Both the position numbers and the translations under genes were made by a program. Below are positions 1 to 16,771 of a stretch of DNA of 20,000 nt, one piece after another. Origin of the DNA: an uncultured virus (IMG/VR IMGVR_UViG_3300033148_004385). Taxonomy: Duplodnaviria; Heunggongvirae; Uroviricota; Caudoviricetes. Location of the stretch: IMG/VR virus record IMGVR_UViG_3300033148_004385, positions 54,259-74,258 of that record; one strand, given 5' to 3'. The first letter of the stretch is position 1, and each line of letters starts with the position of its first letter. The notes beneath the pieces are model-generated. The model saw only the letters and a program-made list of their open reading frames with translations. It had not been told where the DNA came from and ran no database searches.

Positions 1-160
1 AGTTATATATACTTCTAATTTCACCATCATCAGCAGCATCTTCATCATCCCAACGCCTTATTATTGACCCTGTATAACCTTTTTGTTGTCTTTCGTATAT
101 AACACCACCTTTTACAACAAAGTCGCTAAATTCGCTTGATTTACTGTTTTCATTACTCAT
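1..160 (-). CDS. 5' part of a probable MORN-variant repeat protein (runs off window edge)
   Basis: Manual translation from ATG at 160: MSNENSKSSEFSDFVVKGGVIYERQQKGYTGSIIRRWDDE...; GGAGG RBS at 166-170; carries the G-x-x-YE...(F/Y)TG leader shared by neighbouring MORN genes. Confidence 0.65.
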   Translation of the reverse strand, partial: MSNENSKSSEFSDFVVKGGVIYERQQKGYTGSIIRRWDDEDAADDGEIRSIYN

Positions 161-165
161 ATTAT

Positions 166-231
166 CCTCCCTTGGATTATGGCTTAATTACCATCTGCTT
201 ATAATATACGGATTTTTTTCGGATTTATCAA
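166..231 (-). promoter_or_regulatory. Promoter/stem-loop/RBS cassette copy 1
   Basis: Minus strand TTGATA-17-TATATT, then AGATGGTAATTAAGCCAT, then GGAGG. Confidence 0.8.
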
Positions 232-239
232 GGGTTATT

Positions 240-722
240 TTACTTTTTATTATTATCTTTTAATATTTCATCATTTTCCCAAAATTCTTTAAATTCGATA
301 CTACCATCTTCATGGTATCTAATATATTCACCATCTTTTAAACCATCTTTGTAATTACATTCTGTTTCTTTATTCCCATTTTCATGCCATCTTATATACT
401 TACCATTTATACCATCATTTACAAGAGTACACTCAACTTTTTTATTACCATTTTCATAAAAAGATTTTAATTGACCATTTAATAAATCGTCTTTGTAATA
501 AGCGATTCTTTTTATTGCACCATTTAGGTGATATTCAATATATTTCCCTTCTAATTTTCCATCCTTGTACTGCTGTATTGAAAACAAAAGATTGTTATTT
601 AACCATGTGGTATATTTGCCATCCAACTTCCAGTTAAGAAGTGTGTAATCAGTTTTTTTATTCTCATGTTCTTCATCAAAAAAAGTAGTGATGTGAACTT
701 TGTTAAGATTATCTTTACGCAT
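240..722 (-). CDS. MORN-variant (MORN_2/YwqK-like) repeat protein
   Basis: Repeats such as YKDGKLEGKYIEYHLNG and YKDGLKDGEYIRYHEDG; likely start ATG 722 after GGGG RBS, overlapping the upstream stop. Confidence 0.85.
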   Translation of the reverse strand: MRKDNLNKVHITTFFDEEHENKKTDYTLLNWKLDGKYTTWLNNNLLFSIQQYKDGKLEGKYIEYHLNGAIKRIAYYKDDLLNGQLKSFYENGNKKVECTLVNDGINGKYIRWHENGNKETECNYKDGLKDGEYIRYHEDGSIEFKEFWENDEILKDNNKK

Positions 723-1299
723 AATTAAGCCCCAAATTAAATGATATAATTTCTTTACCATCTTTGTAGTATTTTTCTAATTTTTTATTACCATCTTCAT
801 CCCACCAAATTTGTAAACCATCTTCTTCACCATCTTTATAATTTATTTCCAGTTTTTTATTACCATTCTCATACCACCATGTTTTCTTACCATGTTCTTT
901 CCCATCTTTGTAATTTGTTTCTATATATTTATTTCCATTTTTGTACCAATCAATTTGTAAACCATCTTGTTTCCCATCTTTATAATTTTCTTCAGATTTG
1001 TTATTACCATTTTTAAACCATTCAGCTTGTTTACCTACCAAAACATCATTTAAATAATCCCTTTCCAGTTTCTTTACCCCATTACTAAACCAAACAATTT
1101 CTTTCCCATGTTTAAGACCATCTTTATAATTTTCTTCACTTTCTTTTTGGGTTTCCATTGAAAAATAATATTCAATCCATAAGCCATGTTTTAAACCATT
1201 TTTAATGTAACCAGTTGTATATTTCTCATTAACTTCACCTGTAAATGGTTTTTCTTTTAATTCATAAAATTTTCCATCATCAACTGCTATTCTACACAT
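715..1299 (-). CDS. MORN-variant repeat protein
   Basis: Leader DGKFYELKEKPFTG plus ~6 YKDGKxxG..W..NG repeats; start moved to ATG 1299 (AGGAGG RBS). Confidence 0.9.
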   Translation of the reverse strand: MCRIAVDDGKFYELKEKPFTGEVNEKYTTGYIKNGLKHGLWIEYYFSMETQKESEENYKDGLKHGKEIVWFSNGVKKLERDYLNDVLVGKQAEWFKNGNNKSEENYKDGKQDGLQIDWYKNGNKYIETNYKDGKEHGKKTWWYENGNKKLEINYKDGEEDGLQIWWDEDGNKKLEKYYKDGKEIISFNLGLNYA

Positions 1300-1304
1300 A
1301 ATAT

Positions 1305-1371
1305 CCTCCTGTGAATGGTGGTATAATACCACCTATATAATACATTGTATATTTAAAAATTAATTTGTCAA
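1305..1371 (-). promoter_or_regulatory. Promoter/stem-loop/RBS cassette (variant)
   Basis: TTGACA-16-TACAAT; perfect inverted repeat GGTGGTAT-T-ATACCACC (1317-1333); AGGAGG. Confidence 0.7.
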
Positions 1372-1375
1372 GGAA

Positions 1376-2125
1376 TTATACTATGATATCATCTAAATAT
1401 TCATATTCATATTGTTTACTTCCATCTTTGTAGAACCAAACACATGCACCATGTTTTTTATCATCTTTATAATTTAATTCGTATTGTTTGTTACCATTAT
1501 CATACCACCCTAATATAACACCCTCTTGTTTGTCGTCATTTAAAAAACCTTTGTATTCCAACTCACCATTTTTATGCCATCTTAAAGTGATACCATATAC
1601 TATACCATTTTTTGTGTTTACTTCGTGTTTTTTATTCCCATTTTTATAAAACATTTTTTGAATACCATCAGCTAAACCCCTTTTATAAAACTCTATAAAT
1701 TCAGTGTTACCATTTTCATACCATGTTATTAACTCAAAATCACTCTTATTGTTTTTATTTTTATAGAAAACTTCAGATTTCCTTTTACCACTTCTATACC
1801 AACTTTTTAAATCTAAAAGAGCACATGAAATACCAATTCTTTTTTTGTTACCATTATCCCACCATTCACAAAACTCACCACGTTTTTTACCATTCACAAA
1901 ATTATAAACACTTCTTTTATTACCCTTTTTATACCAATAGGTTCGTTTACCATTTAATTTACCATATTGATAATATTCTTCATAATACAAAACATTGTTG
2001 TATTTCCATTTTGTATATTTGCCTTCACGTTTATAATTAACAAGTGTGCATTCCGATTTCTTGTTAAAATCATCATAATAATTTATAATTTCACGTGTAT
2101 TTGTGTTGTCTATCTTTCTATCCAT
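1376..2125 (-). CDS. MORN-variant repeat protein
   Basis: Multiple WYENG/WYDNG repeats; likely start ATG 2125 after AGGGG RBS. Confidence 0.85.
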   Translation of the reverse strand: MDRKIDNTNTREIINYYDDFNKKSECTLVNYKREGKYTKWKYNNVLYYEEYYQYGKLNGKRTYWYKKGNKRSVYNFVNGKKRGEFCEWWDNGNKKRIGISCALLDLKSWYRSGKRKSEVFYKNKNNKSDFELITWYENGNTEFIEFYKRGLADGIQKMFYKNGNKKHEVNTKNGIVYGITLRWHKNGELEYKGFLNDDKQEGVILGWYDNGNKQYELNYKDDKKHGACVWFYKDGSKQYEYEYLDDIIV

Positions 2126-2579
2126 TTTCACACCCCTTTTTAAGTAAACCACCATCTTTATAATAATATTTTACTACTTCCTTACCACTTTTATCCCAAT
2201 GTATTTCTTCCCCATCTTTTAAACCAAATACATAATTTCGTTCTATATGTTTACCACCATTTTCATACCAAATAAATTCATAACCATTTTTAAAATAATT
2301 AAGATAATTTCTTTTTATATGAATATCCCCATTTTTATGCCAATAAGTTTGTTCACCATTTCGTTTACCATTTTCGTAATTACATTCTTTATATCTTTTA
2401 CCATTTTCATACCAATGAATTTCTTTACCATGTTTTTTACCATCTACATAATCTATCTCACAAAATTTATTACCATCATCATATAAATCGACAAACTTAC
2501 CAGTAAATGGGTTTTCTTTTAATTCATACATTAAACCACCCTTCAACCCAGTGTTCTCATAATTGACAACATTTTCCAT
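2118..2579 (-). CDS. MORN-variant repeat protein
   Basis: GGLMYELKENPFTG leader; YVDGKKHGKEIHWYENG repeats; GAGGT RBS. Confidence 0.9.
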   Translation of the reverse strand: MENVVNYENTGLKGGLMYELKENPFTGKFVDLYDDGNKFCEIDYVDGKKHGKEIHWYENGKRYKECNYENGKRNGEQTYWHKNGDIHIKRNYLNYFKNGYEFIWYENGGKHIERNYVFGLKDGEEIHWDKSGKEVVKYYYKDGGLLKKGCENG

Positions 2580-2589
2580 TTTTTTTACC

Positions 2590-3129
2590 TCATAATATAT
2601 TACCTAACATTTTTTTTACCCTAATGTGTTTCTTTACATCCCAGTTACTTAAATCTTGTTTAAAGGATTTTGCATTTAAAAACATCCATTCCATATAAAT
2701 TACATTGCTAACATTCCAACCACCAATATCACTATTAAAAGAATCAGTATCCTTAAACATAGCAGTCATATCATAAACATTACTCACATCCCATTTACTT
2801 AAATCACCATTAAAAGAAGTAGCACCATAAAACATACTATTCATATTGGTAGCACCACTTACATCCCAATTACTTATATCACAATCAAAAGTATTTGCAT
2901 CCATAAACATATGACTCATGTTGTGAAGTTTTGATACATCCCAATCACTGATGTTTATGTTAGGGTATTTCTTGAAAATATTATTAATACCCAATGTGTC
3001 ACCTTTGTTTTGATATCGTTGTACTTTTTTTGTTAAAAAACCTGTACGATAATCGGTAACAAATAAAGATTTAAGAAAATCACGAATTATTAATTTTCCG
3101 TTACTAAATTCTACTTGATATTTCATCAT
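2590..3129 (-). CDS. DUF285/BspA-type repeat protein
   Basis: Tandem WDVS..xMxxMF..A..FN.D(I/L)S.W repeats. Confidence 0.85.
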   Translation of the reverse strand: MMKYQVEFSNGKLIIRDFLKSLFVTDYRTGFLTKKVQRYQNKGDTLGINNIFKKYPNINISDWDVSKLHNMSHMFMDANTFDCDISNWDVSGATNMNSMFYGATSFNGDLSKWDVSNVYDMTAMFKDTDSFNSDIGGWNVSNVIYMEWMFLNAKSFKQDLSNWDVKKHIRVKKMLGNIL

Positions 3130-3773
3130 AAAGTTATATCATCAATCAAAAATCTATTTAATAATATAGATATATCATCATATATAGAAAGAATGTCATT
3201 AGAATCTTTTTTAACATCTACTGCTACAAGATTTAATGTTCTATTATTAAATAATCTCTTTATGTCATCACCAAAAGCCTGGTAGCTAATAACTACATTT
3301 TTATCATTATTTAAATCTAAATAAGAGAATTCTTTAAACTCTAAACCAAAAGAATTTTCTAATTTCACCTCTATTTCTTTCTTTTCTTTTTGTGATTTAC
3401 TGCTTCCATGTTTATCAATTAATTCACTAATTACATCAAATTTATAATAAAATGTTCTGTGTATTGATATAGGAAATACACCTTTCATAAAAAAGAATAA
3501 ATATACAATCCTTTGTTGTCCATTAATAATATTATATCTATAATCATTTATATTATAATACATATAAATGCTTGGGATTGGTATATTTTTTAGTAATGAT
3601 ACAACCAAATAGATTACAATTTTCTCTTCCCATACATATTTTTTTTGATGTTTTGGTATAAAATATGTACCTGAAGACATTCTGTCTATGATTGTATCAA
3701 TTGGTGTCTTTGAGTCACTATATCCAATATCAGCATTCATTAAATCACCTATATTAACACTTTTATTTTTCAT
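3126..3773 (-). CDS. Stand-alone DUF262 (ParB/Srx-fold, GmrSD N-terminal-like) protein, degenerate motifs
   Basis: IPKHQKKYVW (cf. PxYQRxYVW), SLLKNIPIPSIY, IINGQQRI (cf. DGQQR). Confidence 0.75.
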   Translation of the reverse strand: MKNKSVNIGDLMNADIGYSDSKTPIDTIIDRMSSGTYFIPKHQKKYVWEEKIVIYLVVSLLKNIPIPSIYMYYNINDYRYNIINGQQRIVYLFFFMKGVFPISIHRTFYYKFDVISELIDKHGSSKSQKEKKEIEVKLENSFGLEFKEFSYLDLNNDKNVVISYQAFGDDIKRLFNNRTLNLVAVDVKKDSNDILSIYDDISILLNRFLIDDITL

Positions 3774-3843
3774 TTTTTTTACCTCATGACATTGAAATCA
3801 ACTATTTTAATTCATTGGGTTTTTGTGTTTATTTTACCGTTAT

Positions 3844-4209
3844 CTAACCACCACATTTAAAACCATTTTTATAATCTATTTCACTTTTTTTATTGCCATT
3901 TTTATACCATTTAGTTTCCTTACCATTTAATTCACCATTTAAATAAAATCTCTCAAATACTTTACACCCATTATCATAATACAATATTTCTTTCCCATGT
4001 TTTTCACCATTTTTATAATCCACACTTTTTTGTTTATTCCCAGTATAACCCCATAATATACAAATACCATGTTTTATGCCACTTTCGTATTCTATTTCAT
4101 GATGTTTATTACCCTTATCATATAAATCAATGAATTTACCAGTAAAAGGTTCTTGTTTTAATTCATATGCTAAACCGTTGTGTTCGCCTATTTTATCAGT
4201 TGTTGTCAT
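3844..4209 (-). CDS. MORN-variant repeat protein (3' end apparently frameshift-truncated)
   Basis: NGLAYELKQEPFTG leader, close paralog of 2118-2579; AGGAG RBS. Confidence 0.88.
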   Translation of the reverse strand: MTTTDKIGEHNGLAYELKQEPFTGKFIDLYDKGNKHHEIEYESGIKHGICILWGYTGNKQKSVDYKNGEKHGKEILYYDNGCKVFERFYLNGELNGKETKWYKNGNKKSEIDYKNGFKCGG

Positions 4210-4215
4210 AATATG

Positions 4216-4277
4216 CTCCTATAAAAACAACAAAATCATTGTTATAATACTATATCATTTGTTTATTATTTTGTCAA
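4216..4277 (-). promoter_or_regulatory. sigma70-like promoter with weak hairpin and RBS
   Basis: TTGACA-17-TATAGT; AGGAG. Confidence 0.7.
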
Positions 4278-4314
4278 TTTGAAAGATTATTTTACTGAAG
4301 ATGTCTTTTTATAT

Positions 4315-4680
4315 TCATTTTTTACACAAAACATTTTTTAATGTTTTAATGACAGACTCTTTAACTATATCAATGTTATCAACCATAGTTTTTGTCTTTG
4401 GGTTTTCAGAAATAAGACCAATGCTACCATCATTATAATATTCTAAATAAACAATTTTATATGTATTGCGAAAGACTAAACAAACCCCTTCATCAGCAGA
4501 AGTAGTAACACGAAACGGTATTAATTTATTAGAAACAAATTCAGGTATCATTTTTCTTAAACCATCTAAAATTTCTTTAGATGGTTTTTCACCCATTTCT
4601 TCATGTGGGTAATTACCACCAGATAACCAATTTTCTAAATCATCAATTTTTTTTAATAATATTTCATTAAAATCAATCAT
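4315..4680 (-). CDS. Hypothetical protein
   Basis: ~121 aa ORF overlapping the upstream stop; no motif recognised. Confidence 0.7.
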   Translation of the reverse strand: MIDFNEILLKKIDDLENWLSGGNYPHEEMGEKPSKEILDGLRKMIPEFVSNKLIPFRVTTSADEGVCLVFRNTYKIVYLEYYNDGSIGLISENPKTKTMVDNIDIVKESVIKTLKNVLCKK

Positions 4681-5800
4681 CACCAATTATTTCCCCATTT
4701 TTATATTCTTTTTTATATTCTACTTCCCCATATCTCCAAGTACTTTGAATACCATCTTTTCTATCATTCACATAATCTACTTCGGATTCTTTTTTACCAT
4801 CTTCATACCAAGTTTCAAATTTACCATGTTTATCACCATTTTTATAATTTAATTCACATTCTTTATTACCATTTTCATACCATTCTGTATATTTACCATC
4901 CAAACAACCTTTCACATAGTTTCGTTCATATTTTTTATTACCATTTCTATGCCACACAGTATATTTACCTTCGTATCCATCGTGACCACGAAAACCCTTA
5001 CACTCAATTTTACCATTTAAATAATACCAACTTAAAGAACCAAATCTTTTACCAAAATTATAATTTACTTCAGATTCTTTTTCACCATTATCATACCACT
5101 TTGTTTGTTTACCATCCTTATCACCATCTTTATAATTATATTCTAACTCTTTTTTACCATTACTATACCAAATTATTGTTGTACCATGTTCTTTTCCATT
5201 CACATAATTCCCATCACGTCTTTTATTTCCATTTCCCCACCATTCAATATATTTCCCATTTTCTTTACCATTTTTATAATGTATTTCATATTCTTTACGA
5301 CCACTATCATACCATTTTATTTCTAAGCCATGTATTAAACCATCTTTATGGTAAAGTTCATTTTTTATGTGTCCACTCTCATACCACCATGTTTCTTTAC
5401 CATTTAATTCACCATCAATATAATTTTTTTCTACGTTTTTTTTACCATTTTCATACCAATAAATTTCTTTACCGTGTTTCATTCCATTCTTAAAATTAAG
5501 TTCAACCATTTTTTGACCACGACCATAATATTGTGTATATTTACCATGTTTCAAACCATCCTTGTAATATACCTCCATTTTTATTACATCACCAGGATAT
5601 TCATGATATTCAATAAGTACACCAGTAAATGGTTTGGGTTCTAAACTATACATTATATCATCAATTTGAATTGGTTTTTTTTTAGTTTTATATTCGTTAA
5701 TGTGTATAATATTATTGCATCCATTTTTTTTATATTCATTTGTTGGTGTTATTGCATGTGTTAAACCATTAATTTCTATAATTTTATTTGTAATTTTCAT
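4673..5800 (-). CDS. Long MORN-variant repeat protein
   Basis: 375 aa, roughly a dozen YKNG..HG....WY.NG repeats after a PFTG leader. Confidence 0.92.
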   Translation of the reverse strand: MKITNKIIEINGLTHAITPTNEYKKNGCNNIIHINEYKTKKKPIQIDDIMYSLEPKPFTGVLIEYHEYPGDVIKMEVYYKDGLKHGKYTQYYGRGQKMVELNFKNGMKHGKEIYWYENGKKNVEKNYIDGELNGKETWWYESGHIKNELYHKDGLIHGLEIKWYDSGRKEYEIHYKNGKENGKYIEWWGNGNKRRDGNYVNGKEHGTTIIWYSNGKKELEYNYKDGDKDGKQTKWYDNGEKESEVNYNFGKRFGSLSWYYLNGKIECKGFRGHDGYEGKYTVWHRNGNKKYERNYVKGCLDGKYTEWYENGNKECELNYKNGDKHGKFETWYEDGKKESEVDYVNDRKDGIQSTWRYGEVEYKKEYKNGEIIGDD

Positions 5801-5810
5801 AGTCTCTACC

Positions 5811-6716
5811 CTATTTTATATAGCCATATTCATATGTTCCTTTCTCACAAATAGAACCATCTTGATTATAAATTGTATATTCTCCGTTTTCTAAACCTTT
5901 TTCATAATACCGTTCATTTTTTTTATCACCATTTTCATACCATTTTGTTTGTTTACCATGTTTATTTCCATCTACATAATCTACTTCACTTTTTTTATTT
6001 CCGTTTTCATCCCAAATACTCTCTAAACCATTTGATTTGCCATCAACAAAATTTCTTTCCCAATGTTTTACACCATTTTCATGCCACCTCTTTTCTTTAC
6101 CGTTTAATTTACCATTTTCGTAAACCTCTTCACTCATTTTCTTTTTAAGCGAATACGAAAACCAAACAATCTTTTTCCCGTGTCTCTGACCATTTTTATA
6201 ATTAGTTGTTATATGTTGTGTACCATCAGGTGAAACATCAATCATAATACCATGTATTTGACCATTTTCATAGTTTATTACAGTACTTTCGCCACCACTT
6301 GGGTAATAAGAAATGCTCTTACCATGTTCTTTCCCATCTACATAATCTATATCATGGCTTTTACTTCCATTTTTCCACCATAAAATATGTTTACCATTTA
6401 ATACACCATTATCAAAATCACTTTCAGATTGTTTATTACCATTTTCATACCATTTAGTTTGTTTACCATTTTCTTTACCATTTGTATAATTTAATTCAAT
6501 TTTCTTTTGTCCATTTTTATGCCATTCTGTGTGTTTGCCATTTAAAACACCATCTTTATAATTAGTATTATATTTCATAGAACCATCTTTACGGTATTCA
6601 ATTTCAACCCCATCTAACACACCATCTTTATAATTACTTCGTTTTTTTACATTACCATTTTTTTTATATGTTTCTATTAATTCACCATTTACTGGAACAC
6701 CATTTAATTTAATCAT
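5811..6716 (-). CDS. MORN-variant repeat protein
   Basis: Repeats throughout; likely start ATG 6716 in a TAATG overlap with the upstream stop. Confidence 0.9.
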   Translation of the reverse strand: MIKLNGVPVNGELIETYKKNGNVKKRSNYKDGVLDGVEIEYRKDGSMKYNTNYKDGVLNGKHTEWHKNGQKKIELNYTNGKENGKQTKWYENGNKQSESDFDNGVLNGKHILWWKNGSKSHDIDYVDGKEHGKSISYYPSGGESTVINYENGQIHGIMIDVSPDGTQHITTNYKNGQRHGKKIVWFSYSLKKKMSEEVYENGKLNGKEKRWHENGVKHWERNFVDGKSNGLESIWDENGNKKSEVDYVDGNKHGKQTKWYENGDKKNERYYEKGLENGEYTIYNQDGSICEKGTYEYGYIK

Positions 6717-7585
6717 TATTTTACCCACCACTTTATATCGCCATCTCTTTTACCATCTTTATAATTTTCTTCACAAGCTTTTTTTCCACTATCATGCCAC
6801 CAAATTTCTTTACCATTTTTTTTACCATCTTTATGATTTGTATTTGATTCGATTTTACCATTAGGATGCCAAGTAAAACCGAAACCCTGCATATCACCAT
6901 CTTCATATTCTGATTCTAATTGCTTATTACCATTAGGATAAAACCTAGTAAATGTACCATGTAATTGACCGTTTTTATACATCTTATAGCTTTTTTTCTC
7001 ACCACCCTGATACCAAGACATAGAAACACCATCTTGTACACCATCCTTAACATTTATTTCCATTGATTTAATACCATTTTCATACCAGATAGTTTCTTTA
7101 CCATTTATTTTATTATCTATATAAGTTAATTCCCTTTCTTTATTTCCATTTTCATGATATTTAATTTGTTTTCCATGCAGAATGTGACATTTTTTATAAT
7201 TATATTCACTTTGGATATTGCCATTTTCATACCAGATTGTTTCTAATCCATCCATAACATCATTTAGATAATTTGTTTCCTTTCTTTTTTTACCATTACT
7301 ATACCATATTGTATATAACCCATTTTTTTTACCATTCTCATAACTTACTTCTATCCATTTCTTTCCATTTTCATTCCACCATGTTTCTTTACCATGTTCT
7401 TTCCCATCTTTGTAATCAACTACATTGTATATCTCACCTTCATCATTATAATTGGTAATTTTCCCATGTAGCTTTCCATCCTTAATAAAACCTTTAATTT
7501 TATTATTTTTAATTTCACCTGTATAGGGTTTAATCATAACTTGACGATAAACCCCACCAACAAAACACACTTTCATTTCATCCAT
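6716..7585 (-). CDS. MORN-variant repeat protein
   Basis: GGVYRQVMIKPYTG leader; YKDGKEHGKETWWNENG repeats. Confidence 0.9.
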   Translation of the reverse strand: MDEMKVCFVGGVYRQVMIKPYTGEIKNNKIKGFIKDGKLHGKITNYNDEGEIYNVVDYKDGKEHGKETWWNENGKKWIEVSYENGKKNGLYTIWYSNGKKRKETNYLNDVMDGLETIWYENGNIQSEYNYKKCHILHGKQIKYHENGNKERELTYIDNKINGKETIWYENGIKSMEINVKDGVQDGVSMSWYQGGEKKSYKMYKNGQLHGTFTRFYPNGNKQLESEYEDGDMQGFGFTWHPNGKIESNTNHKDGKKNGKEIWWHDSGKKACEENYKDGKRDGDIKWWVK

Positions 7586-7588
7586 ATT

Positions 7589-8041
7589 TTACCCCTGTTT
7601 TAATATTAATATAAAAAAATTATTTTCTTTTAGGAATTCAGAATATTCACTCAAATTATAAATACCATTTCTATAACGCATTTCATTAAGTAATTCTTTA
7701 TTAGCTAAATAATTGTTATATGCATCATTCAAATACGTTTTAAAATCATCCAAAATCCCTACCTCATTGTGACCAAAAACTACTAAATCATAACCATCAA
7801 TCTCACCAAACAATTCACCAGTTTCATACCCTGATATTTTAAGTTCTAATTTATTTTTTAATTTTATATTAGAAATTGAGTCTATATATAATATTGTTTC
7901 TTGTGGTTTGGCAAGACAACCCCTAGAATTTAAATTCGCTTCCATTGCTAAAATTAATTTATGAATAGAATAAAAAACAACTGCTAATGGTAATGATAAT
8001 AAACCCCAAACCACAAGGCTTTCCAATTGAGATTGAGTCAT
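7589..8041 (-). CDS. Hypothetical protein with one N-terminal transmembrane segment
   Basis: LVVWGLLSLPLAVVFYSI hydrophobic stretch; ATGA overlap with upstream stop. Confidence 0.7.
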   Translation of the reverse strand: MTQSQLESLVVWGLLSLPLAVVFYSIHKLILAMEANLNSRGCLAKPQETILYIDSISNIKLKNKLELKISGYETGELFGEIDGYDLVVFGHNEVGILDDFKTYLNDAYNNYLANKELLNEMRYRNGIYNLSEYSEFLKENNFFILILKQG

Positions 8042-8815
8042 ATTTTTTCACCCTTAATATATTCACTAATATTTTTTATTTCACCATTTTCATGCCATTC
8101 TGTATATTTACCATGAAGTATACACTTCTTAAAATTCCGTTCAAATCTTTTATTTCCATTCTCATACCAAGCAATTTGAATACCATCTTCTACATCATTC
8201 ACATAATTTGTTTCAGATTGTTTATTTCCATTCTTATACCAATAAGTATGAACACCATACCTATTACCATTTTCATACTGCAATTCACATTTTATCTTGC
8301 CATCATAATACCATCTTATTTCTTTACCATTTTTTTTACCAGCTTCATAGTTTATTTCATTTTCTTTATTTCCATTCTCATACCAAAGAAAAGATTTCCC
8401 AATCGGCTTGGCGTTTTCGTAAATTGATTCAAAACTTTTCTTACCATTTTCATGCCATTCAGAGTGTTTACCATGTCTTTTACCATGCTTATAAAATATT
8501 TCAGTTTGTTTATTGCCATTATGATACCACCAAGTTTGTATACCATGGCTTTCCCCATTCTCGTTATTTAATTCATATAGTTTACTACCATATTCGTTCC
8601 ATTCAATTTCAACCCCATGTAGTAACCCATCTTTATAAGTTTCTTCTGATGCTTTATCACCATTTTTATGCCAAAAAAACTCTTTACCATCTTTTTTTCC
8701 ATCTTTATAGTTTATTTCCCATTCTTTTCTCCCATTCTTATTGTAATAAACCTCTTTACCATTTTTTTTTTTCGGCTAAATAACCACCTTCTGGTATTAA
8801 ATTGTTTTTACACAT
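8038..8815 (-). pseudogene. MORN-variant repeat gene interrupted by one extra base in an A11 tract
   Basis: ATG 8815 with AAGGAG RBS reads MCKNNLIPEGGYLAEKKKW*; with A10 it continues NGKEVYYNKNG... in a stop-free frame to 8038 (~258 aa). Confidence 0.85.
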
Positions 8816-8821
8816 AGATTT

Positions 8822-8892
8822 CTCCTTTGAAAATAAATAATTGCATAATTACAACCACAATTTATTATATATTTTATTTCATATTTTGTCAA
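8822..8892 (-). promoter_or_regulatory. Consensus sigma70 promoter + hairpin + RBS
   Basis: TTGACA-17-TATAAT; GGTTGTAATTATGCAATT; AAGGAG. Confidence 0.8.
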
Positions 8893-8930
8893 TTACTTTT
8901 ATGATTTCATTTATTAAGAGAAAAGAAATA

Positions 8931-9725
8931 TTAAATATCCATTTCCATAGCAATTTCAGCACTTCCCACATTAACTTTTTTTAAATGTTTATTTATTATA
9001 ACCTTACGCTCATGTGTATATTTTGCAATTTGAAGACCATGTTTTTTTCCATTTTTGTAATTACAGGTGGTTTTCAATTTTTCAAATAATGACATACCAT
9101 CATCGGGTATAAAATCGTAAATTTCTACCTTAAATCTGTGAACACCAGTAACCCATTTGGTATAGAGACCCTCTATTAATCCATTATTATAAAAACATTC
9201 AATATCAAGTTCCTTATATCTATCATGCTTTTTGTATTCACCATGTAATAGCCCCTGTTTATATGTTGTCTTAACATCTATTCTTCCGTTTTCATGCCAA
9301 GATTTATATTCACCATGTCTTTTCCCATTTTCATATCTGACATCTGATTTCTTTTGTCCACTCACATACCAAAAGAAAGATTTTCCATGTGGTTTATTAT
9401 TTTTAAATTCCTGAATGGATTTTAACTTATCATTTTCATAACGTAATATTGACACCCCATCTTTTTTATTGTTTTTATATTCAATATTTGAAATCATTAC
9501 ATTATTGTCATCCCATTCAATTTGTTTACCATGTAATTTCCCATATTTGAACATTTTCTCTGTTTTTAATAGCCCATTTTTACAATATTTCTCTTGCCGT
9601 CCATGTAATTTATTATTTTTAAAATTTTGAATTAAATTTCTTTCACCATTTTTGAAATTCCTAATAATCCTTATACCACCATCTTCATGATATAATTCAT
9701 CGAAAAAAATGTTTTCTTCAATCAT
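8931..9725 (-). CDS. MORN-variant repeat protein
   Basis: FKNNKLHG and YENGKRHGEYKSWHENG repeats; divergent C-terminus. Confidence 0.87.
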   Translation of the reverse strand: MIEENIFFDELYHEDGGIRIIRNFKNGERNLIQNFKNNKLHGRQEKYCKNGLLKTEKMFKYGKLHGKQIEWDDNNVMISNIEYKNNKKDGVSILRYENDKLKSIQEFKNNKPHGKSFFWYVSGQKKSDVRYENGKRHGEYKSWHENGRIDVKTTYKQGLLHGEYKKHDRYKELDIECFYNNGLIEGLYTKWVTGVHRFKVEIYDFIPDDGMSLFEKLKTTCNYKNGKKHGLQIAKYTHERKVIINKHLKKVNVGSAEIAMEMDI

Positions 9726-9750
9726 GTTTGCCCCACTAATTTTAATGATT

Positions 9751-10725
9751 TTATTTCTTTAGGTCTTCAGCTAAAACAGCATTCCCACATGTAATTCTGC
9801 TAACATCTTCTTCATTTGATGGGATAAAAATTAGAACATCAAACCCTTCTTTAATTAAATCTTTTTCAATTTTAGTATAAGGTGTAAAATACTTTTTTGA
9901 TGATTTAATACCATTAAGAATACACTGCTGTGTTTGGTGTATAGGTGTGATTTTAACCATGAATTTTTCTGGATTAAAAAGTTTTCTTAACTTCTTTGCA
10001 TCCACTTCATATCCATCCGCCAATGCAAAATTTAAAGCATATTTTCTACCAACAGGTTTCATTAATCTTTCACCAATTTCTGATATCTCTTTGAGTTGTA
10101 ATGATTCATTGTTAAACATTGTATTTCTTTGTGAATCTGATGTTGAATTTATAGAAAATTGTAACCCTGCTTCACCTTCGTAATGTTTATTTTTCATGTT
10201 ACACCACATTTGTATTTCATTTTCAAGTAATTTATTTGTGTTTGGAAGCATTGTTGTAAAAACTGGGTGTATAGTATCACATTTTAAACCAGTTGTTTCA
10301 ACTAATTTTTTTAACCCATGTGCAAACCAAATCACATCAGGATTCCAACTTGGTTCACCCATTCTTGTCAAATGTAGGTTTAACCGTTTAGTATATTTAA
10401 CATCCTTCCTCTCATTTATGGCTGTCACAACCTGTTTATTTAAGTTATCAAGCGAAATGTTACCCTGAAATTTTAATAAAGGCACATCACAAAATTGGCA
10501 GTGATGCGGACATCCGTGTTGGGTTGAAATAGTCACAACCCATTTTTCACCCAATGGTAAAACATTACCGTCTGGAACTTCTTCTATTTCCCTTGTTAAA
10601 CCCAGAAAATCAGCCTTAACATTGGCATTACTTCCATAATCACCAATAGACGTAAACTCTAAAGGTTTATTGTCTGCTGTTTCCATTGTGTAAATCACAC
10701 CTGTTGGTACTTTAATTTTATTCAT
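9751..10725 (-). CDS. RlmN/Cfr-like radical SAM protein
   Basis: STQHGCPHHCQFC (CxxxCxxC in RlmN-like context), MGEP, LQFSINS, C-terminal ITCG. Confidence 0.8.
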   Translation of the reverse strand: MNKIKVPTGVIYTMETADNKPLEFTSIGDYGSNANVKADFLGLTREIEEVPDGNVLPLGEKWVVTISTQHGCPHHCQFCDVPLLKFQGNISLDNLNKQVVTAINERKDVKYTKRLNLHLTRMGEPSWNPDVIWFAHGLKKLVETTGLKCDTIHPVFTTMLPNTNKLLENEIQMWCNMKNKHYEGEAGLQFSINSTSDSQRNTMFNNESLQLKEISEIGERLMKPVGRKYALNFALADGYEVDAKKLRKLFNPEKFMVKITPIHQTQQCILNGIKSSKKYFTPYTKIEKDLIKEGFDVLIFIPSNEEDVSRITCGNAVLAEDLKK

Positions 10726-10734
10726 TCCACCCCT

Positions 10735-11595
10735 TTATTGTCTTTCATTTAAAACTTTTCTACTTTCTTGAACACCTATAATATATACCGCTCTTGTCTC
10801 AATTTCACCATCTTCGTCATAACATATAACTTCACCGCTTTTCATGTTATCTTTATATTCACATGTCAATTCAATTTTTCCGTTTTTATAATACCAACTT
10901 TCTTTACCATGTTTTAAACCATCTTTGTAATGAAGTTCTTCTTTTATTTCACCACTATAATAATAAACAATATATTTCCCATGCCATTTACCATCTATAA
11001 AATCTATATCATTTTCTTTTATGCCATTCACATTCCATTCAATAAACTTACCATGTTTTTTTCCATTTTTATATGTACAACTAAGTTTCTTTGTTCCATC
11101 CCTATACCACACTTTACATTCACCATGTTTTTCGCCATTTTTTAAGCCTTCTATTTTACGAATTTTACCATTTCTAAACCATGATATTTTATGTCCATGT
11201 TTTTTTCCTTGTATATAATGTGTTTCTGAAGATATATCACCATTCATATACCAATCAATATATTCACCATCTAAAAAACCATTTTTACCATAAAATTCAC
11301 ATTCTTTATTGCCATTCCTGTACCAGTAAATTTCTTTGACTTCACCATTTTCAGAAAAACATTCTGTATATAACTCACCTGTTTCATACCATGTTTTAGA
11401 TTCGCCATCTCTTTTACCATCTTTATAATTTTCTTCACTTTGTTTTTTACCATCTTCGTAAAAACTTTTATGTGTTCCTTCTTTTTTTCCATTAATATAA
11501 TTACCTTCCATTCCATTAATGTTTTTACCATAACCACTAAAACCATCTTTATTGATTTCATAAGTTAATCCATTATCTTCAACAACCGTTTTCAT
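10735..11595 (-). CDS. MORN-variant repeat protein
   Basis: NGLTYEINKDGFSG leader; many repeats; AGGAGG RBS. Confidence 0.9.
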   Translation of the reverse strand: MKTVVEDNGLTYEINKDGFSGYGKNINGMEGNYINGKKEGTHKSFYEDGKKQSEENYKDGKRDGESKTWYETGELYTECFSENGEVKEIYWYRNGNKECEFYGKNGFLDGEYIDWYMNGDISSETHYIQGKKHGHKISWFRNGKIRKIEGLKNGEKHGECKVWYRDGTKKLSCTYKNGKKHGKFIEWNVNGIKENDIDFIDGKWHGKYIVYYYSGEIKEELHYKDGLKHGKESWYYKNGKIELTCEYKDNMKSGEVICYDEDGEIETRAVYIIGVQESRKVLNERQ

Positions 11596-11600
11596 TTAAA

Positions 11601-11675
11601 CCTCCTAAAATAGTGTAATTGGTGTAACCACCATTAAGACAATTTAATTATATATTATTTGATTTATTTATGCAA
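11601..11675 (-). promoter_or_regulatory. sigma70-like promoter + RBS
   Basis: TTGCAT-17-TATAAT; AGGAGG. Confidence 0.65.
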
Positions 11676-11715
11676 GAATTTTTTTGATTTTAAGATTTCA
11701 TGGGATTTTTTTAGT

Positions 11716-11886
11716 TCACAGTCTTACCATTTTATCTAATAGTAAGACTGTCCACCCAAATAGAACAAATAGAAACCACAACATCAATAATATTAAAAGA
11801 ATTTTCCTAATTCGTTTTTTATTTAAATTGATTCTTATTTTCCATACGTTCCAAGATGTTATCAATATTTTAATTAGAGTACTCAT
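11716..11886 (-). CDS. Small (56 aa) basic/hydrophobic membrane protein, absent from the ORF track
   Basis: MSTLIKILITSWNVWKIRINLNKKRIRKILLILLMLWFLFVLFGWTVLLLDKMVRL; has its own promoter cassette and AGGAG RBS. Confidence 0.7.
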   Translation of the reverse strand: MSTLIKILITSWNVWKIRINLNKKRIRKILLILLMLWFLFVLFGWTVLLLDKMVRL

Positions 11887-11892
11887 ATGATT

Positions 11893-11957
11893 CTCCTACG
11901 AAATCATGGCTTAATTACCATCTGTTTAGAGTATACTGATTTATTTGGATTTGTCAA
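11893..11957 (-). promoter_or_regulatory. Promoter/stem-loop/RBS cassette copy
   Basis: TTGACAAATCC..16-nt spacer..TATACT; AGATGGTAATTAAGCCAT; AGGAG. Confidence 0.85.
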
Positions 11958-11960
11958 GTA

Positions 11961-12314
11961 TTATTTTGGTAGTTTCTTCAAAAAATCTGGCAATACTTTT
12001 ATTAGTGCCTTCATTTGGTCTTCTTTACTTATGCTTTTGTGCCTTTGTTTATGTATATGTATATGTCGTACACTATACATAGCTTTAGCACCCCATGAAT
12101 TATAATATTCTTTAGTATATTCTGGGTTTTGATGTATTATATCTTCAGCACATTTTAAAGCAAACTCCAAACTTTTAATATGTTTTTCTAAAATAGATAT
12201 TTTATCAATCTTAAATGATAATTTATTATTTAACACACCTATTTGTTTTTGTAGTTTAACAATTAAATATTTTGCTTTTTGATGAACGATTTTTGGTATT
12301 TTCTTTGTACTCAT
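11961..12314 (-). CDS. Hypothetical basic protein with coiled-coil-like segment
   Basis: 117 aa ORF; upstream TGnTATAAT and GGGG. Confidence 0.65.
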   Translation of the reverse strand: MSTKKIPKIVHQKAKYLIVKLQKQIGVLNNKLSFKIDKISILEKHIKSLEFALKCAEDIIHQNPEYTKEYYNSWGAKAMYSVRHIHIHKQRHKSISKEDQMKALIKVLPDFLKKLPK

Positions 12315-12362
12315 GTTATAACAACCCCACTTAAAAATTAATTATAACATTTTTTTGGTAAA

Positions 12363-12899
12363 TTAATCAATCATGTAAGAAATACTAACACTTTTATTGT
12401 CACTATTAAATTTCTTTAATGCATTATTTTCTTTATTTTTTTGTTCCATTCTTAAATCTAAATCATTAATCCTGTAATAAACACCAGTATCATCACGTCT
12501 TAATCTATAACGTAAAATAGCTTCTTCCTTCCTGATTTTAATAATTTCTATAAACTTATTAATTATTGCAGATGTATAATAACTAAATGGGGATTTCAAT
12601 GTCCCATCCGCAGATGTTTTAGTTAAATCAAACATGTGGTATTTATTAATGCAATGCATATAAGCATCTTTAATCATTCCATATTTGAATTTATAAGAAT
12701 AAAAATTTCTTCTGTTACTTATTTTAATTGCCATCAGAAAAAATAATGAATGTAGTTTTTTGGTAGCACGACCAAGTTCATTGCTTTTTGTTAATTCTTC
12801 TCTTAATTCTTTATTGCTAAGATACTTACCTTTTTTACCCTTTTTAAGAACATTGATTGCTTCAAGTTCTTCTTGTTTTAATATCTTTAAATCATCCAT
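12363..12899 (-). CDS. 55: T4 gp55-like late-transcription sigma factor
   Basis: YLSNKEL, ISNRRNFYSY, MIKDA...C...FD, PFSYYTSAIINKFIEIIK resemble gp55 motifs (YVNNKEL, LSKRFNFSGY, MIADG, NFD, P.AYITQ..FNAF); start placed at ATG 12899. Confidence 0.82.
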   Translation of the reverse strand: MDDLKILKQEELEAINVLKKGKKGKYLSNKELREELTKSNELGRATKKLHSLFFLMAIKISNRRNFYSYKFKYGMIKDAYMHCINKYHMFDLTKTSADGTLKSPFSYYTSAIINKFIEIIKIRKEEAILRYRLRRDDTGVYYRINDLDLRMEQKNKENNALKKFNSDNKSVSISYMID

Positions 12900-13230
12900 G
12901 TAATACCCTTTTAATGTCTGTTGCAGAACGTTGTAACTTATTATAAATTTTAGCATCAATAAACTCTTTATTGGATATTAAAGCCCCTTTAGTTTGTATA
13001 AAACCAACTTTTGGATAAAAATCAAAAAGTAAATTATAATGTTCTAAATCTGTTAATTTATAAAATGTTTTGTTTAAGTCCTGGATTAAAGCAATACCCT
13101 TTTTATGTAAAGATAAATATCTATTAATCCTGTATTGACTGTATAGTTTTTTTTCTACTATAAACTTATTATTCTTATTCGTAATTGATGCTAAATAAGA
13201 ATATATACTTTGCGGTTTTAATTCAAGCAA
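12892..13230 (-). CDS. 62: T4 gp62-like clamp-loader small subunit
   Basis: YSQYRINRYLS...IQDLN...LTDLEHYNLL resembles the gp62-family Y.PFMINR.LS...NEMN...QYDFL pattern; TTG start, AGAGG RBS. Confidence 0.6.
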   Translation of the reverse strand: MLELKPQSIYSYLASITNKNNKFIVEKKLYSQYRINRYLSLHKKGIALIQDLNKTFYKLTDLEHYNLLFDFYPKVGFIQTKGALISNKEFIDAKIYNKLQRSATDIKRVLHG

Positions 13231-13278
13231 AATAACCTCTTAGTGATAATATGTTTAATGGATTATAATATATCCCAA

Positions 13279-13617
13279 TTATTTAATAAAAATTTCTTTG
13301 GTTATATGTTCCATAAAAGCCCTAACTTCACTTATTTTGTATTCTTTATTATCATCAAAACCATCGTTTTCTTGCATCATTTCCACTAAAATATTTTGAT
13401 TTATTTCAACATCTTCTTTAATTGTTAATAATTGCTTCAGAATTTTTAAAAAATTTCTTTTACCAATTTTAGAATTAACCGTTTTACCAAATATACTTAT
13501 TAACTTTTCAAAACTAAATTGACCAGTTACAATATCATTAAATTCTGAAAAATCAGATTTTGAAAATAAAAACTTATAGAAATCTAACAATAAACTATTT
13601 AAAATTGAACCTTTCAT
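13279..13617 (-). CDS. Hypothetical protein
   Basis: 112 aa ORF; its ATG overlaps the TGA of the duplicated rnh 3' end. Confidence 0.7.
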   Translation of the reverse strand: MKGSILNSLLLDFYKFLFSKSDFSEFNDIVTGQFSFEKLISIFGKTVNSKIGKRNFLKILKQLLTIKEDVEINQNILVEMMQENDGFDDNKEYKISEVRAFMEHITKEIFIK

Positions 13618-13685
13618 TTATACAAACCCCTTATAAAAGAATATCCCATGTTTTGTATAATATATTTATTAATAAATTTGTAATA
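13594..13685. repeat. Direct repeat copy A (rnh 3' end + start of next gene)
   Basis: 13608-13685 matches 14298-14375 at 72/78; match extends through ACTATTTAAA with a 6-nt indel. Confidence 0.92.
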
Positions 13686-13748
13686 CTCTATGTGTTTTAT
13701 ATGAAAATTGTAAAAAACATGGTAAATATCAAAAAAACAAGAAAACAC

Positions 13749-13812
13749 TTGAGAAATCCAAGTAAATCAGTATACTCTAAATAGATGGCAATTAAGCCCT
13801 AATTCATAGGAG
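13749..13812 (+). promoter_or_regulatory. Promoter/stem-loop/RBS cassette copy (inverted orientation)
   Basis: TTGAGA-16-TATACT; AGATGGCAATTAAGCCCT; AGGAG. Confidence 0.85.
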
Positions 13813-13818
13813 AATGAT

Positions 13819-14298
13819 ATGGTAGTAGCAAGAAATAATGAAACAGGCTTAGTTCATGAGCTAAAAGAAGAAATATTCACAGGAATTTATAATAATTGTG
13901 AATATTTAGATGGTGAAAAACATGGGAAATCTATTATCTTTTATGATAATGGAAATAAAAAAATTGAAGAAAATTATAAAAATGGAAAACAACATGGGAA
14001 ACAAATTGAATGGTATGAAAATGGTATTAAATTTGAAGAAAAGAATTATAAAAATGGTGCATTACATGGTAAATATACAGAATGGTATAGAAATGGGAAT
14101 AAAAAATCTATACATTCATATAACGAATGGAAAATCACACTTGGTATTAAGTGGTATGAAAATGGAAATAAAGAATTTGAAATAAATTATAAAGATGGTA
14201 AAAGACACGGTAAAGAAATTTGGTGGCATAAAAATGGTAATAAAAAATCTGAATTAAATTATAAAAATGGGAAACAAATATATTCTTCCACTATTTAA
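13819..14298 (+). CDS. MORN-variant repeat protein, only plus-strand gene
   Basis: TGLVHELKEEIFTG leader; YKNGKQHGKQIEWYENG repeats. Confidence 0.92.
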   Translation: MVVARNNETGLVHELKEEIFTGIYNNCEYLDGEKHGKSIIFYDNGNKKIEENYKNGKQHGKQIEWYENGIKFEEKNYKNGALHGKYTEWYRNGNKKSIHSYNEWKITLGIKWYENGNKEFEINYKDGKRHGKEIWWHKNGNKKSELNYKNGKQIYSSTI

Positions 14299-14375
14299 AC
14301 CTTTCATTTATATAAACTCCTTATAAAAGAATATTCCATGTTTTCTATAAGATATTTATTAATAAATTTATAATA
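14290..14375. repeat. Direct repeat copy B
   Basis: Partner of 13594-13685; core offset 690 bp. Confidence 0.92.
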
Positions 14376-15149
14376 AACCAAAGCTTTTAATTTAGTTCGT
14401 TCCCTATTTTCATATAAAACTTCAATTTCCTTCTTTAAATGTTCGGGTATTCGTGTTAAATCAACCATCCTTAAGTTATGTTCAAAAAGTTCTTCTAATT
14501 TATGACTTTTAAGCCAACTTTCTAATTTATTTGATTTTAATATTTTTAATGCTGTTTGTACACCAACACCCTTTTTTAATTTATGTACACTATCAGCAGC
14601 ATCACCAACAATTGCGTGTATCCTGATGTCATAATCGTCATCCTGAACGACTTTAAAGTTTCTTGGGGATATTTGTATTAAATTCTTATTATGAGTGTGT
14701 AGCTGCTTAAAATCCTTGTCATTTGAGTATATTATAAAGTTTTCATCAGGATTTGTGATTGTAATGTGACCAATTAAATCATCAGCCTCACATTTATAGT
14801 TTTTTAAGAAATTAAAAGGTAAAGCTTCTTCCATTTCTTTTCTAAAAGTATCAACAAATTTAAAAAAATAATCAAAATCTATTTTACTATCATTTCTATT
14901 TTTCTTTCTGTCACCTTTATAGTCAATTTGTTCATCCAAACGCCAATTCTTATAGTCATATAAAACTATAATATCTTTAATTTTGTAATTAAACCTCGTT
15001 TTCACATACATCATTTCTCTTATCATTTTTTTAGCAAATTCAATTTTGAATTGTTTACTTTTTAGTGGTGTGTACTTAGCAACCCCATGTAAAGATTTAA
15101 ACATAAAATTGTTAAAATCTATCAGGACAATATAACTCTTTTTATCCAT
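14304..15149 (-). CDS. rnh: T4-type RNase H / 5'-3' exonuclease (FEN family)
   Basis: LIDFNN, WR...YKGDRKKNR, EADDLIG, SNDKDFKQL, GDAADSV, GVG. Confidence 0.9.
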   Translation of the reverse strand: MDKKSYIVLIDFNNFMFKSLHGVAKYTPLKSKQFKIEFAKKMIREMMYVKTRFNYKIKDIIVLYDYKNWRLDEQIDYKGDRKKNRNDSKIDFDYFFKFVDTFRKEMEEALPFNFLKNYKCEADDLIGHITITNPDENFIIYSNDKDFKQLHTHNKNLIQISPRNFKVVQDDDYDIRIHAIVGDAADSVHKLKKGVGVQTALKILKSNKLESWLKSHKLEELFEHNLRMVDLTRIPEHLKKEIEVLYENRERTKLKALVYYKFINKYLIENMEYSFIRSLYK

Positions 15150-15234
15150 AGTATTTTCCTATTAAAAAATTTAATAGGTTATTATAGGTTTTATTGATTA
15201 TTTAAGGAATTGATTTGTGTGCTATTTTATTATG

Positions 15235-15477
15235 TTACCAACCATCAACATAAAAGGTTTCACTTATTTTGTTACCATCTTCATCCCATTTTGTTTCATC
15301 ACCATGCTTTTCCCCATCTTTGTAATGTCTTTCTAAACGCACATTTCCATTATACCACCATTCTATATATTTACCGTGTATTAACCCATTTTTGCATTCA
15401 GTTCTGGTTTTATATTCACTAATTATTTCAAGAACACCAGTGAATTTTTTACCATCTATCAATGTGATTTTACTCAT
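15235..15477 (-). CDS. Short MORN-variant repeat protein
   Basis: DGKKFTG leader, KNGLIHGKYIEWWYNG; start placed at ATG 15477 after GGAGG. Confidence 0.85.
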   Translation of the reverse strand: MSKITLIDGKKFTGVLEIISEYKTRTECKNGLIHGKYIEWWYNGNVRLERHYKDGEKHGDETKWDEDGNKISETFYVDGW

Positions 15478-16181: not shown

Positions 16182-16771
16182 AATTTAACTCCATGATTTT
16201 CTAAAAACCAATCTTTAGCTTTTTGTATATCTGTTTTAGAATGTGTTATGTTTTCATTCATATCTACATAAAATTTCCCAACTTCAGCCCAACTTTCAAA
16301 ATCATATATTTGAACCATTAAGTGTAACCTGAATTTCCTTATATTTTTAATTCCAATTTCATGTATTGAATAACCAAATGGTTTGATTTTACCATCTAAA
16401 AATTCTAAGATTGCAGTAGTTCTTTGTAACCCATCAATAATTTGAGAATTATTTTCAGAACCAAACATTCTAAACATCATAATAGTAGTTGAAACACCAG
16501 ATAATAAATTTTCAATAAACTTTTGCTTCATACTTTCATTCCATTTGTCATTTTTTCTTTGAAATGCTGGAACTGCTAATTTTAAAAATTCATTGCTACT
16601 TATTTCAATGTGTTCTTCAAATAAATCATATTCCACATATAACAACATTCCCTGAACGAAACGTTTTAATTCTAAATTAACAGAATAATTTGATTTATTA
16701 AAGCTACTATTCTTACAACCATCTATTACTTCTTGAACTGACTTCTTATGCATTTCTATCCTTTTTAGCAT
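16178..16771 (-). CDS. Stand-alone DUF262-like (ParB/Srx-fold) protein
   Basis: VPAFQR..DKW, FIENLL.G, IIDGLQRTT. Confidence 0.75.
   Translation of the reverse strand: MLKRIEMHKKSVQEVIDGCKNSSFNKSNYSVNLELKRFVQGMLLYVEYDLFEEHIEISSNEFLKLAVPAFQRKNDKWNESMKQKFIENLLSGVSTTIMMFRMFGSENNSQIIDGLQRTTAILEFLDGKIKPFGYSIHEIGIKNIRKFRLHLMVQIYDFESWAEVGKFYVDMNENITHSKTDIQKAKDWFLENHGVKL

Follow-up and report, generated by a model that had tools for sequence, protein, structure and literature searches.

Large families of MORN proteins have been described in bacteria and in giant viruses. Fusobacterium periodonticum carries over 40 MORN2 paralogs in an AT-rich genome, with no function assigned (10.1101/534297), and Orpheovirus has 55 MORN paralogs (PMC5786535); giant-virus repeat families form tandem arrays with accordion-like gain and loss (PMC5786535, PMC5753266). 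YwqK of B. subtilis neutralises a secreted deaminase toxin, YwqJ, by binding it (10.64898/2026.09.29.755374 and PMC8321402), and in T4-like phages the gp30.3 family is an orphan antitoxin (10.1101/2024.07.11.602962). Here we describe a stretch of 20,000 nucleotides from an uncultured virus (IMG/VR record IMGVR_UViG_3300033148_004385, positions 54,259 to 74,258; hereafter the window), which carries 14 genes of the MORN_2 family (Pfam PF07661) and belongs to a phage genome with 27 copies. The expansion is real and recurs in phages, and we propose that the proteins may act as binders.

The phage copies resemble the PF07661 family at large in their 24-residue unit, their cap, the columns that vary and their above-cut-off scores, and differ from it in that they have no signal peptide, occur as 27 stand-alone copies and carry no fused domains beyond short extensions. 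With Fusobacterium they share the presence of dozens of paralogs in an AT-rich genome, whereas that set is cellular, mostly equipped with signal sequences and clustered with adhesins, and the phage set is viral and probably cytoplasmic. The likeness to the giant viruses lies in a lineage-specific viral MORN expansion in tandem arrays; giant-virus MORN proteins, however, belong to viruses of eukaryotic hosts and often have an adaptor-like N-terminal segment (which we take to be an F-box), while the phage set has a bacterial host, a structural cap only and no ubiquitin route. No Pfam hit to such an adaptor domain was found in the window copies, whose leader is predicted to be a beta-hairpin that continues the sheet. 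YwqK of B. subtilis, the small cytoplasmic toxin binder from which databases take the name for the MORN_2 family, is a single protein encoded behind its toxin, in contrast to 27 divergent copies and no toxin found in the open reading frames (ORFs) scanned. AdfN (gp30.3), of which a family member lies directly upstream of the MORN_2 block, is a precedent for antitoxin-like counter-defence in T4-like phages, but AdfN is a single-copy enzyme and the MORN proteins would act by binding. The MORN expansions that we found in print are those of Fusobacterium and the giant viruses; none in phages turned up in a literature search that left subscription journals and supplements aside.

A MORN_2 expansion in a T4-like phage

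We identified 14 MORN_2 genes in positions 1-15477 of the window, in agreement with the original prediction of about 14 paralogs in 15 kb, and the predicted sizes of 80-375 amino acids hold from starts that are supported by Shine-Dalgarno (SD) sites. PF07661 matched 13 of the 30 window ORFs (12 above the cut-off of 29.6 bits and one at 23.1 bits, E 6.6e-5); the 14th gene is cut by the window start and was recognised by its translation and a repeat hidden Markov model (HMM). The lineage-specific expansion is nevertheless larger than was claimed. The window forms the final 20 kb of the virus record G000 (74,258 bases, 26.7% GC), which is covered at 99.97-100% identity by a complete record of 153,500 bases with direct terminal repeats (G001). 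This genome holds 27 copies, namely 26 ORFs detected with the repeat HMM and one copy interrupted by an in-frame TGA, and the 26 open frames cover 18,132 bases or about 12% of the DNA. One 23-kb, 23-gene block accounts for 23 of the 27 copies and two other places for the remaining 4; the 14 copies of the window end the block, and nine further ones, overlooked before like the four at the other places, lie beyond the window start. The copies have diverged deeply, with a median pairwise identity of 35% and a maximum of 52% (alignments of at least 80 residues).

One copy, m05, is frameshifted in G000 at a run of eleven A residues (8762-8772), where G001 has ten and an open frame of 258 amino acids. 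Only two A/T runs of ten occur inside G001 ORFs, and this is one of them; the difference may reflect phase variation or an assembly error. The two assemblies are also separated by a 45-base indel outside the MORN block (G000 38689, G001 33569-33615). We rejected stop-codon recoding, as the genes are open under table 11 and an in-frame TGA is found in only one MORN copy. No transfer RNA genes were found.

The viral, T4-like nature assigned originally to the stretch is confirmed by a complete record with direct terminal repeats, a T4-type terminase and a gp23-like capsid gene, next to genes for gp55, gp32 and the clamp loader; the predicted gp55-, gp62- and RNase H-like neighbours are indeed present in the window. 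The capsid protein is merely 24-27% identical to those of known phages, and on these sequence features we class G001 as a deep-branching T4-like phage. Scans of viral contigs with its RNase H and capsid returned identical records only, and metagenome scans returned no relatives. The radical SAM protein (RlmN-like, window 9751-10725) is most similar to that of Bacteroides phage Versailles (54% identity), the best matches of NrdJ are in Bacteroides phages (33-36% identity) and many cellular MORN_2 matches belong to Bacteroidota. TTGACA/TATAAT promoters and SD sites, in contrast, do not fit Bacteroidota as host.

Repeat unit, cap and predicted fold

The repeat scaffold noticed in the original prediction corresponds to a unit of 24 residues (72 nucleotides). 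Of the 163 units extracted, 161 have glycine at position 12, the other fixed positions being Gly21, Gly8, an aromatic residue at position 5 and Trp17, and the most variable columns are 1, 3, 14, 16 and 24. The N-terminal leader was said before to be mostly shared. A regular expression for it matched 8 window copies in full, and in the whole genome 15 of 27 copies (one cut at a locus boundary); several more have a partial leader, and four of the 14 window copies lack it. In the models it folds as a beta-hairpin that continues and caps the sheet. We rejected the possibility that it is a special docking motif. Bacterial MORN_2 proteins commonly carry this cap, which follows the signal peptide in cellular relatives and is therefore not special to the phage.

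Signal peptides had been reported to be absent, and indeed none of the 27 copies has a hydrophobic N-terminus in a simple hydropathy test, compared with 37 of the 45 MORN ORFs that a scan of cellular genomes supplied. The phage copies thus differ from the adhesin-like MORN2 proteins of Fusobacterium and Leptospira, which have a signal peptide for export, and they score 15-43 bits against NF033566 (cut-off 250). A cytoplasmic location of the phage proteins is supported by these sequence data.

The predicted structures of two copies are single-layer, all-beta hairpin sheets. The first was modelled from a single sequence with a predicted local distance difference test (pLDDT) score of 80.0, the other four models reaching 36-63, and the second with an alignment of 20 rows (pLDDT 90.9). 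The top solved fold match was MORN1 of T. brucei (6t4r; Z 13.2, root-mean-square deviation (rmsd) 5.8, 209 aligned), followed by junctophilin-2 (7rxe) and MORN4-Myo3a (6jle), and the viral fold matches were giant-virus MORN proteins. The MORN sheet proposed earlier is supported by these models and matches. The solved proteins have in common with it a hairpin sheet that is antiparallel and consists of a single layer (Z 10.3-13.2, rmsd 4.0-5.8), but they are eukaryotic, have 23-residue units and scaffolding roles and are 13-19% identical to the phage copy. MORN sheets have a peptide-binding role. The copies differ widely in net charge, from -11 to +14.

Promoters and timing of expression

The statement that many copies have their own promoter holds for 5 of the 14 window copies, with sites at 231, 1371, 4277 and 8892 on the minus strand and at 13749 on the plus strand (10-12 of 12 matches). 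A sixth promoter, at 11957, lies one small ORF upstream of a MORN_2 gene. We counted only high-scoring intergenic sites, because the promoter scan yielded 191 sites in total where shuffled sequences yielded 164.5 +/- 14. The remaining copies are closely coupled to upstream genes, and SD-like sites precede all 14. The T4 late motif was found upstream of 0 of 25 copies and of 15 of 182 other ORFs, the latter including the capsid and prohead protease genes, which agrees with the non-late expression predicted before. From these motifs we infer that the family is expressed early or in the middle of infection.

We also found a conserved promoter element, present in 14 copies in G001, of which those in the window lie at the three places given in Table 1 and at 18491-18548. 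It consists of sigma70 boxes, a near-invariant sequence of 16 bases with a weak inverted repeat of 5 pairs, and an SD site. The element could be an operator or a 5' hairpin; the hairpin itself is weak (z values between -0.03 and -2.29 for 7 copies, with two-sided change in 1 of 5 pairs). A search for the element outside this phage matched only two contigs of the same phage.

MORN_2 expansions in other phages

Other phage contigs carry separate expansions, of 4 to at least 26 copies. When 50,697 annotated phage records were searched by tblastn with one copy as query, 2 gave a match, and a comparable array was present in neither. Motif scans of viral contigs returned 26, at least 134 and 39 stretches, and among the matches listed for the second of these scans 10 of 69 non-self loci, on 5 contigs (one of them a giant virus), had at least 5 MORN ORFs; since the motifs were derived from these same families, the scans provide examples of expansion and not its frequency. 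For instance, G002 (388 kb, with a T4-type terminase and tail tube) has 26 copies in the five regions examined, G003 (347 kb, with terminase) has 8 in 12 kb and G004 has 9. We further found 13 copies in tandem in G010, 6 at a contig end in G008, 4 by HMM surrounding an RNase H gene in G006, 5 in L274 and 4 in L270.

The MORN_2 family of each phage carries its own conserved end segment, and the best match of a copy mostly lies within the same genome (25 of 27 in G001, 25 of 26 in G002, 7 of 8 in G003, 8 of 9 in G004, 4 of 4 in G006, 6 of 6 in G008 and 5 of 5 in L274). In G010 this holds for 6 of 13, the remainder going to its relatives. The contigs G002, G008 and G010 are related, and a tree built from the first 85 residues of 39 of their copies, without six from G002 whose leader is of another kind, clusters the copies by genome, with 3 label changes compared with 16.0 after shuffling (0 of 200), at weak support. 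L274 and L270 match at 99.3-99.95% identity apart from a segment of 452 bases; a crossover between two adjacent MORN genes, in a stretch of about 17 bases that both share, deletes this segment and with it one copy. Turnover, in place of the fixed one-to-one orthologs that would have spoken against the original interpretation, is thus seen in G002/G008/G010 and in L270/L274, phages other than G001, for which the scans gave no relative.

An RNase H-like gene is flanked by MORN_2 genes both in G001 (window 14304-15149) and in L058 (3971-5089), and in G002 MORN_2 copies lie 3 kb from such a gene (L142:1506-2756); this proximity may reflect a position in the early region only. In L281 (153-2128) about eight small cysteine-rich paralogs with a common start, a second expanded family, lie beside MORN genes. 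The contigs L259/L111 and L275 are giant-virus-like and combine RING-type zinc-finger and MORN_2 paralogs, the domains being read from sequence. One among 120 profile matches listed (P0043) has MORN_2 fused to a DarT-like domain.

Diversification within the genome

Units are as similar between genes as within them (56.0% and 56.6% nucleotide identity), which fits old saturation or a shared pool. Unit pairs of at least 80% identity number 12; 200 shuffles of the columns gave 0.25 such pairs on average and never more than 3. Most of the 12 pairs, however, involve consensus-like units, and the shuffle null ignores covariation. There is one convincing exchange patch, of 108 nucleotides and 83-91% identity, between m07 and m18 (the latter outside the window), with flanks of mostly 41-66%. 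The reshuffling of repeats that was suggested originally is thus weakly supported in G001.

The scaffold columns are constrained, with a proportion of non-synonymous differences (pN) of 0.36 and of synonymous differences (pS) of about 0.5. This constraint, the 26 open frames and the SD-like sites in front of all 14 window copies indicate that the proteins are being kept. Between G000 and G001, 6 of 9 differences lie inside MORN genes, which make up 22% of G000 (P 0.005; counted by gene, P 0.046). Of the 5 substitutions, 4 are non-synonymous; four other loci, outside the block, are 100% identical. A diversity-generating retroelement was rejected as the source of variation: there are 0 RVT_1 matches across the complete genome at E <= 0.1, hence no reverse transcriptase to drive one, and there is no template/variable repeat pair, as near-identical template repeats are absent and the longest exact match between non-overlapping genes is 37 nucleotides.

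Proposed role and alternatives

The reading that we prefer, and to which we give an even chance, is that the family consists of early, cytoplasmic binders of host proteins that evolve by birth and death. An exported bacterial MORN_2 gene with its hairpin cap would have been captured and would have lost its signal peptide, after which tandem duplication would have multiplied the gene, with gain and loss of copies and now and then a patch transferred through recombination of 72-nucleotide units (gain and loss are demonstrated in other phages and just hinted at in G001). Host-type promoters, seen as motifs, would transcribe the copies singly or in coupled operons. Each copy is modelled as an open beta-hairpin sheet with fixed glycine and aromatic positions and free mid-strand positions, and each might bind a host protein of its own and block it by sequestration; the likeliest targets would be sensors of defence systems, toxins or proteins on which takeover of the host depends. 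The precedent for counter-defence is drawn from the orphan-antitoxin family gp30.3, a member of which adjoins the block. A bolder version, which we consider doubtful, is that several phage lineages independently made an exported repeat protein into a germline, antibody-like repertoire of tens of cytoplasmic MORN_2 sheets per genome, every sheet having its own defence protein or toxin of the host as target and the whole being renewed by duplication, loss and unit exchange.

A number of observations weigh against binding by diversified copies. An early-promoter regular expression, which overlooked two sites found by the window promoter scan, matched upstream of 3 of 25 copies and 20 of 182 other ORFs, hence without enrichment. 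The variable columns agree with those of cellular MORN_2 proteins (Spearman 0.85), so the variability is generic to the scaffold, and pN (0.66) and pS (0.60) at these columns are saturated and would be expected under neutrality no less than under diversifying selection. If the strands alternate as modelled, column 24 and columns 1/3 would point to opposite sides, so that a single hypervariable face is not supported. Nearest-neighbour units mostly lead to consensus-like units, and the top shared-rare-residue score (24.0) exceeds the 95th percentile of the null (23.0) but not its maximum (28.3). The polymorphisms between G000 and G001 are tiny in number and could include assembly errors in repeats.

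Several of these points are shared with the first alternative, which we hold possible though unlikely, namely that the copies have one function with dosage or redundancy: duplication-prone repeats would pile up in a tolerant early region while the mid-strand positions, hardly constrained in a single-layer sheet, drift. That pN equals pS at the variable columns and that cellular relatives vary in the same columns is as expected from drift. The one stop-broken copy, the copy frameshifted in one assembly and the crossover that cost one of two 99.9%-identical phages an entire copy also speak for it, and so does the fact that a second repeat family (PARCEL) and GmrSD_N each occur twice. Yet a family that takes up 12% of a 153-kb genome is costly to carry, all but one of the 27 frames have stayed open although the copies diverged deeply, and near-identical copies would be a cheaper way to raise dosage than copies that are at most 52% identical over 80 residues or more.

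The genes were originally called YwqK-like and tentatively linked to toxins, a link that found no support. We found no toxin family among the 30 window ORFs and 100 of the 166 other G001 ORFs (Pfam) or among 20 ORFs (PADLOC), scans that a novel toxin type could escape as many neighbours have no family; in the ORFs scanned, no MORN_2 gene sits directly behind a cognate secreted toxin. The name YwqK is given automatically to many MORN_2 proteins in databases, including exported ones, and the variable columns are generic. Orphan immunity proteins that bind incoming interbacterial toxins, so that the cell survives until lysis, seem improbable to us. Their model would be the neutralisation of secreted YwqJ by B. 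subtilis YwqK (10.64898/2026.09.29.755374), and databases do name the relatives YwqK; but the weak match of PF07661 in a B. subtilis control genome at E <= 0.01 (gene not identified) is gone at E <= 0.001, and the word MORN does not occur in the available parts of the YwqK texts (10.64898/2026.09.29.755374, PMC8321402). The relatives found were mostly exported proteins of Bacteroidota and Marinimicrobia, and the benefit would be narrow for a lytic phage.

It would likewise surprise us if the paralogs formed an intracellular structural scaffold, joining edge to edge or binding membrane and organising replication or shielding DNA. The modelled sheets are open-edged and vary in length, eukaryotic MORN proteins serve axonemes and junctions (judging from the titles of structure entries), and the block surrounds gp55, gp62 and RNase H, the latter being flanked by MORN copies in L058 too. 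A lattice would, however, favour few and conserved subunits, whereas copy number and position vary freely among related phages, and the predicted N-terminal hairpin caps the copies. That the copies are part of the virion, bind receptors or serve a diversity-generating retroelement as targets is most improbable: cellular MORN_2 proteins were proposed as adhesins (10.1101/534297) and weak matches to the adhesin LIC20035 were found, far below cut-off, but the late motif is absent from all 25 copies and neither an RVT_1 match nor a near-identical template repeat was seen.

Neighbouring genes

The features of the window are listed in Table 1. The two stand-alone GmrSD_N genes have no nuclease part and show weak matches to the defence proteins NsnA and PD-T4-2; a role of their products as decoys is possible. 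PARCEL/DUF285 repeats usually occur in bacterial surface proteins, and a second protein of this type is encoded elsewhere in G001 (L033:13801-14568). The genome also encodes an RNA ligase and an RNA-repair HAD domain, as well as a type IV CRISPR-Cas cassette (L038:8090-11966, G001 128090-131966) that is type IV-B-like plus cas6, with cas6 above cut-off and csf1, csf2, cysH-like and csf3 below their cut-offs; a simple exact-repeat search found no CRISPR array. Other genes observed in G001 are a class II ribonucleotide reductase with intein (L036:8790-11570), a TnpB/Cas12f-like gene (L034:6263-7882) and a radical SAM mobile-pair A-like gene (L039:4126-4872).

Table 1. Features of the window with their coordinates (aa, amino acids)
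Feature	Position	Strand	Remarks
MORN_2 m14, 5' part	1..160	-	187 aa in full, runs past window start; leader present
sigma70-type promoter with conserved leader element, upstream of m14	174..231	-	
MORN_2 m13	240..722	-	about 160 aa, without leader
MORN_2 m12	715..1299	-	about 194 aa, leader
sigma70-type promoter upstream of m12	1344..1371	-	11/12 matches
MORN_2 m11	1376..2125	-	about 249 aa, degenerate units, without leader; two aa differ from G001
MORN_2 m10	2118..2579	-	153 aa, leader; model pLDDT 90.9
PARCEL/DUF285 repeat protein within block	2590..3129	-	
stand-alone GmrSD N-terminal (DUF262-like) domain protein within block	3126..3773	-	
MORN_2 m09	3844..4209	-	121 aa, leader; own promoter 4249-4277
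MORN_2 m08	4673..5800	-	375 aa, N-terminal extension then leader
MORN_2 m07	5811..6716	-	about 301 aa; model resembles solved MORN folds
MORN_2 m06	6716..7585	-	289 aa, leader
MORN_2 m05	8038..8815	-	frameshifted in G000; own 12/12 promoter 8864-8892
MORN_2 m04	8931..9725	-	264 aa, degenerate, without leader
radical SAM protein within block	9751..10725	-	weak RlmN-like, far below cut-offs
MORN_2 m03	10735..11595	-	286 aa, leader; two aa differ from G001
sigma70-type promoter with conserved leader element	11901..11957	-	drives small ORF, probably m03 onward
gp55-like late sigma factor	12363..12959	-	
gp62-like clamp-loader subunit	12892..13230	-	
sigma70-type promoter with conserved leader element, upstream of m02	13749..13799	+	
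MORN_2 m02	13819..14298	+	159 aa, leader; block's only inverted copy; nearest to unit consensus
T4 RNase H-like 5'-3' exonuclease	14304..15149	-	MORN_2 gene on both sides
MORN_2 m01	15235..15477	-	80 aa, two units, partial leader
gp30.3-family (NADAR, AdfN-like) gene directly upstream of m01	15495..16181	-	
second stand-alone GmrSD N-terminal domain gene	16178-16771		

Implications

Most of the phage counter-defence proteins known so far are small, are encoded by single genes and are unrelated to one another. A repeat scaffold with tens of copies in several phage lineages would offer one cloneable panel for screening against many defence systems, and the pattern of repeat-protein expansion of the giant viruses would extend to bacteriophages. 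If the family is a repertoire, it would represent an anti-defence class that is modular and of general use, and programmable binders could be drawn from it as from a natural library; if the copies are redundant, it would still be a clear gene accordion that occupies 12% of a phage genome. The phage proteins could also provide a first function for the MORN_2 family, which is very large and uncharacterised and in a search with one copy comprised 20,178 cluster representatives (E <= 0.001).

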